Below are positions 43,171 through 55,938 of a DNA stretch of 56,776 nt, one piece after another. The notes beneath the pieces are model-generated. The model saw only the letters and a program-made list of their open reading frames with translations. It did not search any database and was not told the origin of the DNA. The first letter of the stretch is position 1, and every line of letters starts with the position of its first letter. Both the position numbers and the translations under genes were made by a program. The DNA is from Escherichia phage Seurat: sequence record NC_027378.1, one strand, 5' to 3'.

Positions 43171-43174
43171 TAAT

Positions 43175-43199
43175 AAAGGGCCGAAAGGCCCTTTATTTA
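43175..43199. terminator. bidirectional intrinsic terminator
   Basis: AAAGGGCC-gaaa-GGCCCTTT followed by TTTATTTAT on plus, T-rich on minus. Confidence 0.6.
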
Positions 43200-45539
43200 T
43201 TCCTCTTCACCTAAGTTTGCCATAATTCCTTCAACATCTTGCGTAATGCGCCAAGCTGCCCCAGTAAATCCCAGTTTAATAGTCTCCTCCCGTGTTACCG
43301 GAACAAGTGCACCCATAGCAACCATTTCCTTGATTGTAGACTCGATTGCAGCGGACAATCCGTGATGATAGTTTTTAAACGCGGACTTACTTGCAAGACG
43401 CGTAGTAATATCACCCCGCGTGATAATACCTTCTTTGCGCAAATCTACACGTTTAACTTTGACCCAGTCTTTAGTTAGATAATTCACACAGACCTGACAC
43501 ATAGTACGGATACGAGCTTCATCGTTAGTCCCGATACCGCCGCTATGCCATTCCTTCATAATAATGTCCTGTCCATGTCGCACAAAGTCCAAAGCCCATT
43601 GCACATGATATGTCTGTACCACCGGATTGATCCAGTTTTCCCCAACTGCTAACAGGGCGGATAGACGTAACACCTTCAGGTGAGCACGGTTCCAGGGCTG
43701 ACGGATTGCTTCGTCTTTGGTTGCGTTAATATTACGGTCACATTCGTCGTTAAACTGATCACATAATGCTTCCGCTTCTGGACTAAACTGCACTTCAATA
43801 CTTTGATGCTTTGCCATTGCGACTAAGGTGTGGTTAACAAGATGGCACACCATATCACGCAAATGCTGATCCATTGTAGTCTGCTGGTTCTTGTTTAAAG
43901 GTGGTCGATCACCTTCATAGCGGACAACATGGAAACGGGATAAGAATCCATCCTCCATCATTTCACGGGTTAACGCTTCAAAAAACGTGTCCGGTGTTGT
44001 TTCGCCCATGATGCTATAGGCCACACCTTGTTGAGCTTCCGTATTATTAGCCTTATCAGAATAAGACATACCACCAACAATAGACATCTGACCGGACTTT
44101 TGATAAACATCGGTAAGATCATTCTTGAAGCTTTGCATCGGTGAACCTGCTGGCGCCGTAGCCATTGCTTTAATAATCTTACCAAACTCACCGTTCAAGT
44201 TGATAAAAGATTGTTTGTCTGCAAAAGATTTACGCAGTGCGGAGCCGGAAGCGCATCGGTCAAATGATACAAAGCTATGAATCTGCGGAAACGGTTCCTG
44301 AAGCTGGCTAACTATATTAGATAGACCACTGTTCAACGTTTCTTTACCAACACCAGAACGAGCAATAAGGACAAAATATCCATTAAGACCGGATTGAGGA
44401 ATCTGCCAAACCTTCCCGCATACGCCAGCCATAAATCCTAGTGCTGTCACAATAGAAATTTCTTTCACTGGTCGGACGGATGCCTTGTAGATGTACTTCG
44501 CAAGCTCCCCAGCAAGTCCCGGCGGCCAGTCAATGGCGGTTGCATCAATAGACGTACTTTCTGCAACTACGGTCTGCCCCTGTGTTGTTTCAACAGTTAC
44601 GGGCATTTCCGCTACCTGTTGCATTGCACTGTGTGCCGCTTGCATACGGGCAGCATAATCCCGCGCCAGCGCCGCTACGTTTTCCTGGGCAATGCGCTCA
44701 CGCTCCATGCGACCGCGACACATACGCAAGCAACGGTCAATATGAACATTGTTCTTATTAGCCTTCTCACGTTTGCCCAGTGCGCTATAACGGAACAGAC
44801 GACGACATTGCTCATTACTTTCCGTGTAAAATGCATACATAGAAATAAGGGCAAGGTCTGCTTCAGACTGGGAAGGGAATCCCATTTCAACCCATTCACC
44901 ATTGAATAGGCGTGCATACTTATCTCCGTTGTCCGCTTCAAGTGCACGCTGGTGAATAGTTGCATCGTCTTCTACCGGATCTTTTTCTACCAGTTCAATT
45001 TCATATGTCTTGCGCTGAAGATCAATTTCATTCACAAGCATAGTAAGATAATGATCGCGTTCGGCAACTGGTTTGTTATAGACAGGATTACCCGTGCAGA
45101 TAATAAAACGCTCCTGACTATAAACTTCGACACCATCACGTCGGCGACCTTTACCGATGTTTCCTCTTAACCACAGGTGAACGCCCAAGCCTGAGCGACT
45201 TACTTCGGTGTAAGTGTCGAACGCAGTCATGATCTGTTCGAAGCGACGCAATTGCTCCGGCGTAGTGTGCTTCTTGGGGTCCGGTTCATTGGTTGCGTTC
45301 TTCACATCCAGGTCGATGCAGGTGAACGGGTCTTGTGCAGTAAGCACGAAGCCAATATAAGGTTTATTGAAATGAGCGGCGCAACCTTTGGCAGCTTCAA
45401 ACGTCATAAGCATATCCGGATCGGTAACGTCCGCCGCCATCAAACGTCCAATATCGTTATCCCATACGAGCGGCTTTTTGTCCGTATCGGCGACAGCCCA
45501 TTGTGGGAAAGCTTTAATTTCAGCGGGAAACAGTTCCAT
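43197..45539 (-). CDS. DNA primase-polymerase (AEP-type) fused to a C-terminal helicase/NTPase
   Basis: N-terminal FTCIDLDV and SGLGVHLW primase motifs; PriCT-like SEADLALISMYAFYTE; Walker A LIARSGVGKET. Confidence 0.75.
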   Translation of the reverse strand: MELFPAEIKAFPQWAVADTDKKPLVWDNDIGRLMAADVTDPDMLMTFEAAKGCAAHFNKPYIGFVLTAQDPFTCIDLDVKNATNEPDPKKHTTPEQLRRFEQIMTAFDTYTEVSRSGLGVHLWLRGNIGKGRRRDGVEVYSQERFIICTGNPVYNKPVAERDHYLTMLVNEIDLQRKTYEIELVEKDPVEDDATIHQRALEADNGDKYARLFNGEWVEMGFPSQSEADLALISMYAFYTESNEQCRRLFRYSALGKREKANKNNVHIDRCLRMCRGRMERERIAQENVAALARDYAARMQAAHSAMQQVAEMPVTVETTQGQTVVAESTSIDATAIDWPPGLAGELAKYIYKASVRPVKEISIVTALGFMAGVCGKVWQIPQSGLNGYFVLIARSGVGKETLNSGLSNIVSQLQEPFPQIHSFVSFDRCASGSALRKSFADKQSFINLNGEFGKIIKAMATAPAGSPMQSFKNDLTDVYQKSGQMSIVGGMSYSDKANNTEAQQGVAYSIMGETTPDTFFEALTREMMEDGFLSRFHVVRYEGDRPPLNKNQQTTMDQHLRDMVCHLVNHTLVAMAKHQSIEVQFSPEAEALCDQFNDECDRNINATKDEAIRQPWNRAHLKVLRLSALLAVGENWINPVVQTYHVQWALDFVRHGQDIIMKEWHSGGIGTNDEARIRTMCQVCVNYLTKDWVKVKRVDLRKEGIITRGDITTRLASKSAFKNYHHGLSAAIESTIKEMVAMGALVPVTREETIKLGFTGAAWRITQDVEGIMANLGEEE

Positions 45540-45545
45540 ATTAAA

Positions 45546-45749
45546 TTAAGACCTCCGACGCTTATCGCCTTGCATTGCTATAAGTGCTGGCTCAGCAATT
45601 TCGCGCACGTATACAAATACGTTAGCGATACGAACAGCTCCAGGAAGTATATCTCGATTGCGGCACAACTTATAACGACTAACCCCGAAACGGGCTTCAA
45701 TCTCTGATGTGGTTATATATTTAGCATCAAACTCGTCTTGTGCAGTCAT
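45546..45749 (-). CDS. small helix-turn-helix DNA-binding protein (excisionase/AlpA-like)
   Basis: YITTSEIEARFGVSRYKLCRNRD HTH pattern; RBS AGGAGGAG. Confidence 0.55.
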   Translation of the reverse strand: MTAQDEFDAKYITTSEIEARFGVSRYKLCRNRDILPGAVRIANVFVYVREIAEPALIAMQGDKRRRS

Positions 45750-45810
45750 AGCTCCTCCTTTGTCCGCACACTATACACAGATAAGAGGAGCCATTGCAAC
45801 CAAATTTGCA

Positions 45811-46593
45811 TTATTGGGCAGCAAAGTTTGCGTACTCCATAACGCATTCATATACCTCTTCAGGAGTGCGACCTTCCCGTAGATTTATCATCCATTCGTC
45901 CAATTGTCCAAGGCGTTGCTGAGCCTTCGTGATGTCATGAAATGCTTGCCATGGAAAAAAGTTTCCCCCAGCTAGTGCAACCTCTATGCCCGTAGCGGCG
46001 TTGCCATATGCCTTGAGCTTGCAAACAGGCCAACGTCCACGATTATCCCAAATTGCTGGTTCCACATTTTTATCCGGCCGCGAATACCATCTATTTTTAA
46101 GAGATGTGATTTCTTTTTCCGTTAACTGCTCACCCTTCGCACGCTCATTCTTGGCAAGCCAAACTTTAAACGCAGACTCATTATTTTTATCCTTTGTTTG
46201 GCAAACCTTAAAAGCATTCTCATATGGTGCTTCCGGTCCAAACCGTTTGTAGTAGTCAAACTTGCCGCGGAACTTTGCAACTTCTTTAGTTGTAAGTTCA
46301 CGGTTTTCTTTTTCCTTTATTTGTTCGCGCACCCATACCATAAACTTATCACGCTCAGGGTTTTCTTTTTTTGCAGCAGCTTTTCCGTGTTTAACTTTAG
46401 ACTTCACATCTTGTGCGCTATCAAAATAATCCTCAACCATCTTAAGAGCCTGCTCTTTAGTTACCTTTCCGCGGATACGGGAACACGCTTGCACGACCCA
46501 GGCTGCGAAGCACAAATCCTTAACCACATTGGGGTGAGTGCTGGTCGGCTGTTCCTCCACCACCGCGTTATTGTTAGTCAGCTCTGTATTCAT
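45811..46593 (-). CDS. hypothetical protein adjacent to the iteron region
   Basis: Track start is TTG at 46653; reset to the ATG at 46593 (RBS GGAGG); Lys-rich middle region. Confidence 0.5.
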   Translation of the reverse strand: MNTELTNNNAVVEEQPTSTHPNVVKDLCFAAWVVQACSRIRGKVTKEQALKMVEDYFDSAQDVKSKVKHGKAAAKKENPERDKFMVWVREQIKEKENRELTTKEVAKFRGKFDYYKRFGPEAPYENAFKVCQTKDKNNESAFKVWLAKNERAKGEQLTEKEITSLKNRWYSRPDKNVEPAIWDNRGRWPVCKLKAYGNAATGIEVALAGGNFFPWQAFHDITKAQQRLGQLDEWMINLREGRTPEEVYECVMEYANFAAQ

Positions 46594-46603
46594 ATAGCCT
46601 CCG

Positions 46604-46885
46604 ATAGGGTATTGCCTTAACCCTATGGTAAGACCCTCCCTATTAAATTGCAAGAGTTATTGTAAAACAATAGGTATAGGGTGCAATACAGGGTTCATAT
46701 AGGGTAACCCTATAAACACCCTATAAAATACCCTCCCTATGCAGCTTTCTAAATTTATAGTTTTAGTTTACCCCTTGCGCCCCCGCAGAAAAACTAAAGA
46801 TAGGGGTACTAGGGTAAACATTGGCAAATACCCTATACCCTACTCCCTATACTATGATTCTAAAAAATTTGGAGTATACCCCTAT
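46604..46885. repeat. iteron-like array of CCCTAT/ATAGGG hexamers (at least 12 copies, both orientations)
   Basis: Includes the palindrome TATAGGGTAACCCTATA near 46698-46714; about 0.14 copies expected by chance in 280 bp. Confidence 0.7.
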
Positions 46886-47060
46886 AAACTTATAAACTTT
46901 CAGTCAACTAACTAAAATAAAACTAATTAAACTAATATTAATAATAACTATAAATATATATAAAATAAGGATTTATTATTAATGTATATAGTACCTATTG
47001 GTATTATTTGACGAGTTTATGGTCATTATATAAACTCTATAAATTTTCATAAACCTGAAC
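46886..47060. other. AT-rich tract (candidate DNA unwinding element)
   Basis: About 175 bp almost devoid of G/C immediately after the iteron array; no ORF. Confidence 0.55.
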
Positions 47061-47224
47061 GGATGCAGATCAAAAACGAGAAGTCAAGTGCTTTTGAGAG
47101 AAATTTATTGAACTATTGTGATCGGAAGGTATATCAAGCTATAATGCGCTTAATCGCGGGATATTGGAGGAGGACTTTATTGCGCGGTTAACCGGACCAG
47201 TAGGAGGGCTGGCCCGGAAGTAGT

Positions 47225-47551
47225 TTAGAGCTGTACAGGTGTGAAGTGGGCTAGCGTATCGTCGGACATAATACCCGACAGTTTTTCGTTTACCCAGTCG
47301 GACCAAATGCTATCCGGTTCCTGGCGGTGTACGAACCAGATCTCGGATGTGCCTTCTTTGCGCATTGGTTGCACTTCTGCAAGGAACTTGTCCTGCATAA
47401 GGCGGGTGAAGCATACGCTGGTCATTGGAACCGGCTTTTCGTCTTTATTGTAATAAGGGACCAATATTTTATTTCCGAAGTCGGCAACTTCATAAACTGT
47501 TCCTTTGCGTAGACCCCGGATGTCAGTGTAAGAGCGAATGAACGTTTTCAT
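47225..47551 (-). CDS. hypothetical protein
   Basis: 108 aa. Confidence 0.45.
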   Translation of the reverse strand: MKTFIRSYTDIRGLRKGTVYEVADFGNKILVPYYNKDEKPVPMTSVCFTRLMQDKFLAEVQPMRKEGTSEIWFVHRQEPDSIWSDWVNEKLSGIMSDDTLAHFTPVQL

Positions 47552-55418: not shown

Positions 55419-55500
55419 TCTCCTTAGATCAATTCTCCTTGCGCCGTATCAAGTTTCTCTGTTACCCTTGAGTGGTTCATGTCAAGCGGAGGAACTCGAT

Positions 55501-55938
55501 ATGGCACTTCAACCTCGTGGTATTCGTAATAACAATCCAGGCAATATTCGCTGGGGTGATAATTGGCAGGGCTTAGTTCCTGCTGATAAGCGAACCGATA
55601 AATCTTTTGCTCAATTCACGCAACCGATTTACGGCATTCGTGCGCTAGCGAAAATCCTGACAAACTACACCAAACGTGAAGGCTTACCCAATGTGGGTAA
55701 GAAAAACATCGACACTGTACGTGAAATTATCGCTCGCTGGGCACCGCCTAACGAAAACGATACGGAAGCGTATATTCGCTCTGTTGCCAAAGCAATTGGT
55801 GTTCAACCTAACGATCCAATTAATGTCTTCGACAAGGCAATTATGTCAGGATTGGTGAAAGCAATCATTCGTCATGAAAATGGCATGATGCCCTATACCG
55901 ACGACGTAATTAACCGCGCTATTGCAATGGTACTTTAA
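55501..55938 (+). CDS. hypothetical protein, positional candidate endolysin
   Basis: Start reset to the ATG at 55501 (RBS GGAGG); lies between holin-like and spanin genes; no catalytic motif recognised. Confidence 0.35.
   Translation: MALQPRGIRNNNPGNIRWGDNWQGLVPADKRTDKSFAQFTQPIYGIRALAKILTNYTKREGLPNVGKKNIDTVREIIARWAPPNENDTEAYIRSVAKAIGVQPNDPINVFDKAIMSGLVKAIIRHENGMMPYTDDVINRAIAMVL

Follow-up and report, generated by a model that had tools for sequence, protein, structure and literature searches.

A putative sigma70-type promoter nested in a predicted ribosome-binding-site hairpin ahead of a small winged-helix gene of Escherichia phage Seurat

Control of a ribosome-binding site (RBS) by a hairpin that also houses a promoter is described for the T4 genes e (lysozyme), soc, 49, I-TevI, I-TevII, I-TevIII and segB and for mobE of Aeh1; two reports on these T4-type cases describe a hairpin that sequesters the RBS and a promoter inside or beside its 5′ arm (PMC3014915, PMC2988022). 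The locus considered here, in Escherichia phage Seurat, resembles the T4 e/I-TevI group in that the Shine-Dalgarno sequence (SD) and start codon would lie in a stable helix on transcripts from an upstream promoter, in that a promoter is predicted just upstream of the RBS whose transcripts would lack the 5′ strand of this helix, and in that the DNA of the 5′ strand overlaps the promoter. It differs from T4 in its promoter, which has −35 and −10 hexamers of the host sigma70 type, whereas the T4 late promoter is a gp55 promoter with the sequence TATAAATA. It also differs in that Seurat is an unrelated siphovirus (Seuratvirus, Queuovirinae), in that the locked gene encodes a small winged-helix protein ahead of a primase rather than a lysis or homing endonuclease function, and in that the Seurat arrangement is a prediction from sequence. 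De Smit and van Duin are said to have related hairpin stability to translation initiation. With RBS-occluding hairpins of that general kind the Seurat hairpin shares a local SD-containing stem, for which the expected drop in initiation scales with stem stability, but it contains a promoter, so that the lock depends on the transcript. A further point of comparison is the promoters of the MerR family, which carry their operators in an over-long spacer between the −35 and −10 hexamers. The putative Seurat promoter is like them in that the protein encoded downstream has, in a structural model, a winged-helix fold resembling that of MerR, and in its spacer, which is 18 nt (about 20 nt in RCIP0359-type phages) and invariant in the CAjan-type block; unlike them, it has no dyad inside the spacer, the repeat spanning the −10 and the leader instead. 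The principle is already known from phage T4, and the Seurat case is a tidy, testable example of it that opens no new question.

The window, by which we mean the whole 56,776-nt stretch of DNA that was analysed (NC_027378.1), is 97–98% identical to slur01 and CAjan. On its minus strand a 260-aa gene of unknown function (45811–46593; phrog_27223) lies upstream of, and co-directional with, the 67-aa gene (45546–45749; phrog_11967), which is followed by the 780-aa primase/helicase gene (43197–45539), the last gene of the unit. The primase start is 6 nt past the stop of the 67-aa gene and has a GGAGG 12 nt upstream. A terminator scan of that strand found no terminator-like site among the three genes, and a palindromic hairpin flanked by A and T runs, terminator-like in appearance, lies at the primase gene end (43172–43197). 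The 260-aa gene is presumed to be the source of read-through transcripts that carry both arms of the hairpin. The gap between it and the 67-aa gene is 61 nt and reads, in gene sense, TAA-TGCAAATTTGG-TTGCAA-TGGCTCCTCTTATCTGTG-TATAGT-GTGCGGACAAAGGAGGAGCT-ATG, the stop codon of the 260-aa gene being 16 nt ahead of the hairpin 5′ arm. Directly after this stop codon, at 45795–45810 on the minus strand, there is a perfect 5-6-5 palindrome, TGCAA-ATTTGG-TTGCA, whose right half is the −35 hexamer and which is present also in L027 and in KS_A3-type phages; it might fold into a small hairpin in RNA or serve as the binding site of a dimer, with its centre near −40. A 42-aa open reading frame with a TTG start on the plus strand (45794–45922), which begins 3 nt past the GAGGAG of the plus-strand arm, is probably not a gene, being antisense to the conserved 260-aa gene in a region that is unconserved in Greed-type phages. 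The intergenic region upstream of the 260-aa gene (46594–47224) contains an iteron-like cluster, with five of the six exact copies of ACCCTATA/TATAGGGT in the window falling within 46675–46837, one-mismatch copies at 46603, 46620, 46687, 46844 and 46879, both orientations represented, and a very AT-rich stretch (46890–47060) adjoining. This cluster may represent a replication origin, or else a multi-site operator, in the neighbourhood of the primase module.

The first-pass annotation of this DNA had pointed to an inverted repeat at about 45751–45791, and the repeat is real: on the plus strand it consists of GCTCCTCCTT (45751–45760) and AAGAGGAGC (45783–45791), and a repeat search returned 10-nt arms at 45748–45757 and 45785–45794 that are 90% complementary and spaced by 27 nt. 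The complement of the RBS, which had been assigned to the right plus-strand arm, is actually the left arm (45751–45760), the right arm instead complementing the anti-SD segment in the mRNA. In the minus-strand RNA, AUGGCUCCUCUU (45794–45783) pairs with AGGAGGAGCUAU (45759–45748) in a 12-bp stem of ten Watson-Crick and two G.U pairs, and the hairpin has a predicted energy of −21.8 kcal/mol. The 5′ arm (45783–45794, minus strand), which contains the anti-SD, also comprises the last base of the −35 hexamer and the first 11 nt of the promoter spacer, and the 3′ arm (45748–45759, minus strand) comprises the SD and the AU of the AUG start codon. The SD of the 67-aa gene, as read from the sequence, is AAGGAGGAG (45752–45760, minus strand). 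A weak inner helix around the −10 (45763–45781, minus strand; UCUGU at 45781–45777 with GCGGA at 45767–45763) is not beyond chance (p 0.48).

The stability of the stem is unusual by several measures. The minimum free energy (MFE) of a 78-nt segment is −25.5 kcal/mol as compared with −17.1 ± 2.8 in dinucleotide shuffles (z −3.0; 1 of 200), and the segment from the −35 to the AUG has a z of −3.66, with none of 400 shuffles reaching it. When the 15 free bases of the promoter spacer were shuffled, the observed cost of opening the RBS was equalled in 0.3% of the trials (p 0.003). This cost, which is 14–19 kcal/mol across estimates, ranks 4th among 98 crude gene starts in the window at 14.1 kcal/mol, the median being 4.5, and it is the second highest among starts with a good SD, the first being that of the endolysin gene. 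In the read-through context (45900–45700) the SD and AUG have a pairing probability of 0.92, so that, by folding, both are held in a stable helix on the longer transcript, as in control of the T4 e/I-TevI type. The earlier proposal of an mRNA hairpin that sequesters the RBS is supported: the stem is stable, statistically unusual and strand-asymmetric, and three lineages either keep it or extend it. Alternative identities of the element were considered and set aside. An intrinsic terminator does not fit, as the stem is followed by GACUGCAC with no U tract and a scan of the strand found no such site; neither does a LexA box, a sigma54 promoter, a MotA box or an extended −10, by eye or by scan. 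The Rfam 15 covariance models gave no match at E ≤ 1 over 45300–47300.

The 61-nt gap also reads as a sigma70-type promoter on the minus strand, TTGCAA-N18-TATAGT at 45799–45770, which lies 20 nt before the AUG. Its −35-like hexamer (45794–45799) recurs at the equivalent place in other lineages, and its −10-like hexamer (45770–45775), past the 18-nt spacer, is inside the conserved TGTGTATAGTG in the hairpin loop. From promoter geometry, 6–9 nt past the −10, the transcription start is predicted at 45762–45765 (about 45763) on the minus strand, between the two arms and just ahead of the 3′ arm. The 5′ arm would then be the spacer between −35 and −10, the −10 would lie in the loop, and the 3′ arm would be the SD and the AU of the AUG. 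RNAs beginning at the predicted start have a pairing probability of only 0.33 over the SD and AUG and cannot form the stem, and the predicted leader of the nested promoter is 14 nt long with a free SD. Since the promoter lies inside the hairpin, the lock is possible only on transcripts started further upstream. The promoter matches the consensus at 9 of 12 positions with an 18-nt spacer and scores 11.4 bits in a simple weight matrix, which ranks it about 52nd among the consensus-like sites of the window, and such matches are as frequent in shuffled sequence. The match alone is therefore insignificant, and the promoter call rests on position and conservation; on these grounds a nested sigma70-type promoter is probable. 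A search of the literature on Seuratvirus promoters and transcriptomes returned no usable report. In control of the T4 e/I-TevI type the two kinds of transcript would also fall into different temporal classes, with translation of the gene confined to one stage.

Our results suggest an explanation for this overlap, to which we would give a probability of roughly 0.55: the promoter sits inside an RBS-locking hairpin in such a way that read-through mRNA would be locked and promoter-initiated mRNA would be open. The inverted repeat would be the DNA image of a minus-strand RNA stem-loop, with a sigma70-type promoter in the same 52 nt. Transcripts begun upstream and crossing the 260-aa gene would contain both arms and fold at −21.8 kcal/mol, and the small gene would be poorly translated from them. 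Terminating ribosomes should leave the stem closed, as translation of the 260-aa gene ends 16 nt ahead of the 5′ arm. Transcripts from the nested promoter would lack the 5′ arm and would present the strong SD free in their 14-nt leader for translation, so that probably only messages from the nested promoter are translated. We infer both transcript classes, their starts and their differing translation from the sequence. An effect on the primase gene 6 nt downstream is also conceivable, should its translation be coupled to that of the small gene; the distance from the stop to its start, together with the GGAGG 12 nt upstream of that start, would allow partial coupling. The winged-helix/primase module would in this way owe its expression to its own promoter and not to read-through.

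A plainer alternative is that all mRNA comes from upstream, that TTGCAA and TATAGT form no working promoter, and that the hairpin acts as a translational damper keeping the winged-helix protein, and perhaps the primase, at a low level; in a variant of this explanation cleavage by RNase III, or some other factor, might release the hairpin. The hairpin statistics and the strand asymmetry described below fit it equally well, as does a promoter match that is not above chance when taken by itself. We consider it unlikely, however, because both hexamers recur at a spacing of 17–18 nt before the homologous gene, including in lineages free of the hairpin, and because a lock of −22 to −30 kcal/mol on a very strong SD would nearly silence a conserved gene adjoining the primase if there were no unlocked mRNA.

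The recurrence of the promoter emerged from a comparison of the region upstream of the homologous small gene in 21 phage records and some 20 contigs from metagenomes or assemblies. The −35 and −10 hexamers occupy the equivalent place in about nine lineages, in intergenic sequence that is otherwise unalignable. TTGCAA and TATAGT are separated by 18 nt in CAjan- and Greed-type phages and in L027, L038 and L039, and by 17 nt in L026. The KS_A3-type phages have TTGCAA and TATTGT with a 17-nt spacer, and with an 18-nt spacer yong3 has TTGCAT and TATAGT, Pantoea phage Vid5 has TTGCAA and TAAGCT, and Providencia phage PSTCR7 has TTGCTT and TATAAT. L033 and L034 share TTGTGA with a 17-nt spacer, followed by TATAAT in the former and TAATAA in the latter. 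RCIP0359-type phages keep TGTGTATAGTG and have a poor −35 (TTGTGG, at 20 nt). Four phages of this last type (L005, L006, L016 and L032) are near-identical except for a single 7-nt patch of the spacer, 18–20 nt before TATAGT, which reads CTCCGGT, GCCTACT, CATTACT or CCCTGCT; this spacer patch is hypervariable, as against the invariant spacer of the CAjan-type block. In Vid5 and L034 unrelated inverted repeats bracket the equivalent −10 and leave the SD untouched, with arms TGCGGTAGGGGTGC and GCACTCTACCGCA in Vid5 and GGGGGT and ACCCCC, with an outer pair GTTGTGA/TCGCAAC, in L034. An inverted repeat bracketing the −10 is seen in Vid5, L033 and L034, of which only that of L034 is significant against shuffles (z −3.1).

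A second alternative is that the pairing is unselected, the pyrimidine-rich spacer with its CTCCTC complementing the long purine-rich SD by chance, and the identity among relatives reflecting recent ancestry and recombination at the edges. The pattern of conservation in the closest relatives is compatible with this explanation. A 57-nt block shows no differences among CAjan, SLUR76, Dru_SM1, Greed, SA80RD, CSP1C, L025, L029 and L035–L037, and SA126VB and SD04 each have one loop substitution in it. Among the carriers of the block the primase gene is 95–100% identical, and the small-gene body and the terminal part of the upstream gene belong to swapped cassettes with 50–68% identity. We dropped the invariance of the block as proof of constraint and count it as weak evidence, since its carriers are closely related, their primase gene shows as much conservation, and the flanks that do diverge are swapped cassettes. 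In the body of the 67-aa gene (45575–45745, compared with L012, L003 and L011) the DNA of CAjan-type and Greed-type phages is 50–68% identical, as against 95–100% for the final 25 nt, where MQGDKRRRS and the primase SD are encoded, and likewise for the promoter/hairpin block and the primase gene. These conserved blocks look like recombination junctions. The short stretch that separates the small gene from the primase gene is an insertion hotspot in relatives, and it holds HNH homing endonuclease genes in Dru_SM1, SA80RD and yong3 and a 70-aa open reading frame in SLUR76, KS_A3 and KS_A8 (insertions at L002 1652–1864, L004 1642–2166, L009 1404–1616, L010 1383–2006 and L013 1411–1935).

More distant relatives are informative about the hairpin itself, which is kept in three lineages, two of which (L038 and L039) extend it with leader sequences of their own. 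The small proteins of L038 and L039 share 79% and 73% identity with the Greed type, and both lineages retain a 10-bp outer helix, in which one G.U pair has become G-C in L039. Their leaders are longer and different, and extra inner helices form with the conserved left side: GUUC/GGAC and UGUGU/GCGCA in L038, and UGUGUAU/GUAUACA in L039, where the loop is narrowed to 4 nt. The MFE is −24.2 kcal/mol for L038 and −30.0 kcal/mol for L039, with z of −3.8 and −5.6 for the whole region. When the variable leader alone was shuffled, these energies were reached in 4.7% (p 0.047) and 0.6% (p 0.006) of the trials, respectively. L023 (G to C) and L026 (one G lost) are changed only at the outer G.U position, and the 9-bp core is intact in both. 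A pattern scan of IMG/VR returned slur01 only, a protein scan of IMG/VR returned five loci, and a metagenome pattern scan returned three true copies, among which the one substitution and the one 1-nt deletion are both at the outer G.U.

Other lineages do without the structure. L027 and L028, whose protein is 85% identical, have the CTCCTC and an extra A in the 3′ arm, and the hairpin there is no better than random (z 0.1), so that a strong hairpin has been lost in a sister lineage. The KS_A3-type, RCIP0359-type and yong3 phages have no lock; in the KS_A3 type the upstream gene and promoter are present and the lock is absent, and in the RCIP0359 type the spacer varies freely. Judging from these leaders, the lock is dispensable. 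In an 8-sequence alignment of the outer helix 90.5% of the cells are paired and there are zero two-sided changes, which makes it uninformative on covariation, the 3′ arm being constrained in any case as it is the SD. As a general rule, complementarity of the spacer to the SD was rejected, since among 12 lineages with shuffled spacers it appeared only in the window type (p 0.003) and marginally in the RCIP0359 type (p 0.05).

The swapped flanks, the lost hairpin of L027, the lineages that manage without one and the lack of two-sided covariation in the outer helix are all in favor of an unselected pairing. We nonetheless regard it as rather improbable. The result of the spacer shuffles in the window (p 0.003) speaks against it, as does the independent gain of inner helices by L038 and L039 from different leaders. 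The CTCCTC core is retained in L027, L038 and L039, and in the spacer of L027 all six of its positions are kept whereas 7 of the 8 other free positions differ. Finally, every G.U pair in the three hairpin structures, four in each and twelve in total, favors the sense strand, where the opposite strand would have A.C mismatches.

This asymmetry also bears on whether the element acts as RNA or as DNA. In all three hairpin lineages the fold of the sense strand is the more stable one, by 7.6–12 kcal/mol over that of the antisense strand (−21.8 versus −14.2 kcal/mol in the window, −24.2 versus −12.1 in L038 and −30.0 versus −21.5 in L039), which argues for selection on the gene-strand RNA rather than for binding of a protein to a double-stranded DNA dyad. 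The first-pass annotation had offered a palindromic operator for the HTH protein as the other possibility. Its label for the protein holds up, in that the 67-aa product models as a winged helix of the MerR/excisionase type. The AF2 model (pLDDT 83) has a beta-alpha-alpha-beta-beta-alpha layout containing the beta-alpha-alpha-beta-beta fold of MerR N-domains and Xis proteins, and Foldseek matched it to the N-domains of SoxR and NmlR, to RdfS, to the Xis proteins of Tn916 and Pukovnik, and to RacA, BldC and PICI Rpp (probability 0.8–0.93, TM about 0.6, E at least 0.16). Searches with the protein gave nothing at E ≤ 0.1 in Pfam (including MerR and HTH_17), nothing relevant in NCBIfam, and only sigma region 4 (E 0.15) in a PDB profile search; unlike MerR, it has neither a long coiled coil nor an effector domain, and it lacks a Pfam MerR or HTH_17 match. 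The modelled 67-aa protein does look DNA-binding.

An operator in double-stranded DNA would have the arms as half-sites flanking the −10, bound by the 67-aa protein or another regulator that represses or activates the nested promoter. The fold of the protein, the position of the arms on either side of the −10 hexamer, the unrelated repeats that bracket the −10 in Vid5 and L034 with the SD untouched, and a promoter spacer above the optimal length, as is usual at MerR-type promoters, would all suit this explanation. The dyad is present in the double-stranded DNA (9 of 10 positions), but the centres of its half-sites are 34 bp apart and its complementarity is strand-asymmetric, all imperfections being G.U pairs on the sense strand, with the antisense fold correspondingly weaker. 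In L039 the complementarity is near-continuous to a 4-nt loop, as would fit a hairpin in a nucleic acid but not a pair of half-sites for a protein. Nor does the repeat come and go with the recognition helix, as one and the same repeat accompanies VSRYKLCRNR in the CAjan type and ISKFKLSRMR in the Greed type, and it is absent from KS_A3-type phages even though their helix, ISKFKMSRIR, resembles that of the Greed type. No further copy of the half-site was found in the window, and small winged helices of the Xis/BldC type mostly bind direct repeats. The operator claim is accordingly disfavoured, and we hold it to be very unlikely. It is scarcely probable that the stem-loop is instead an element of RNA processing or stability, such as an RNase III site parting the 260-aa message from the winged-helix/primase message, for although it is intergenic within an operon, its stacked helices total 17–22 bp, and intergenic RNase III sites are known from phages, it has no Rfam match, the helix in the window is interrupted and short for RNase III, and its exact overlap with the SD and AUG would be left unexplained.

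The reading that we prefer, a promoter within an RBS-locking hairpin, concerns a single locus, and another hairpin over an RBS is found elsewhere in the same genome. The endolysin-like gene at 55501–55938 on the plus strand (phrog_873) carries a hairpin of roughly 20 bp (55440–55505) that encloses its SD and AUG, and no other RBS in the window is as costly to open (22 kcal/mol). RBS locks with different arm sequences are found in slur01 (15.2 kcal/mol), OddieOddie (27.5 kcal/mol) and Nonagvirus 9g (15.4 kcal/mol), and in 9g a U run follows the endolysin stem. This endolysin lock closely parallels that of T4 gene e, and no sigma70-like promoter was seen inside the endolysin hairpin. RBS locking seems to have more than one use in this phage group. 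A much wider generalization, which we regard as quite improbable, is that RBS-locking hairpins are a timing device throughout the Queuovirinae, for the winged-helix/primase genes as well as the endolysin, and that the MerR-like 67-aa protein acts in addition on the lock promoter with its 18-nt spacer, which would couple the transcriptional and translational control of replication genes within 52 nt.

If the nested-promoter reading is true, the replication module of Seuratvirus, that is the winged-helix protein and the primase/helicase, would be expressed only from its own promoter despite being part of a longer unit, and the T4 arrangement of a promoter in a hairpin would extend to an unrelated siphovirus with an ordinary host-type promoter. 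It would also help in the annotation and engineering of these phages, a group represented in the BASEL collection, since deleting or moving the 260-aa gene would alter the mRNA that feeds the primase module.
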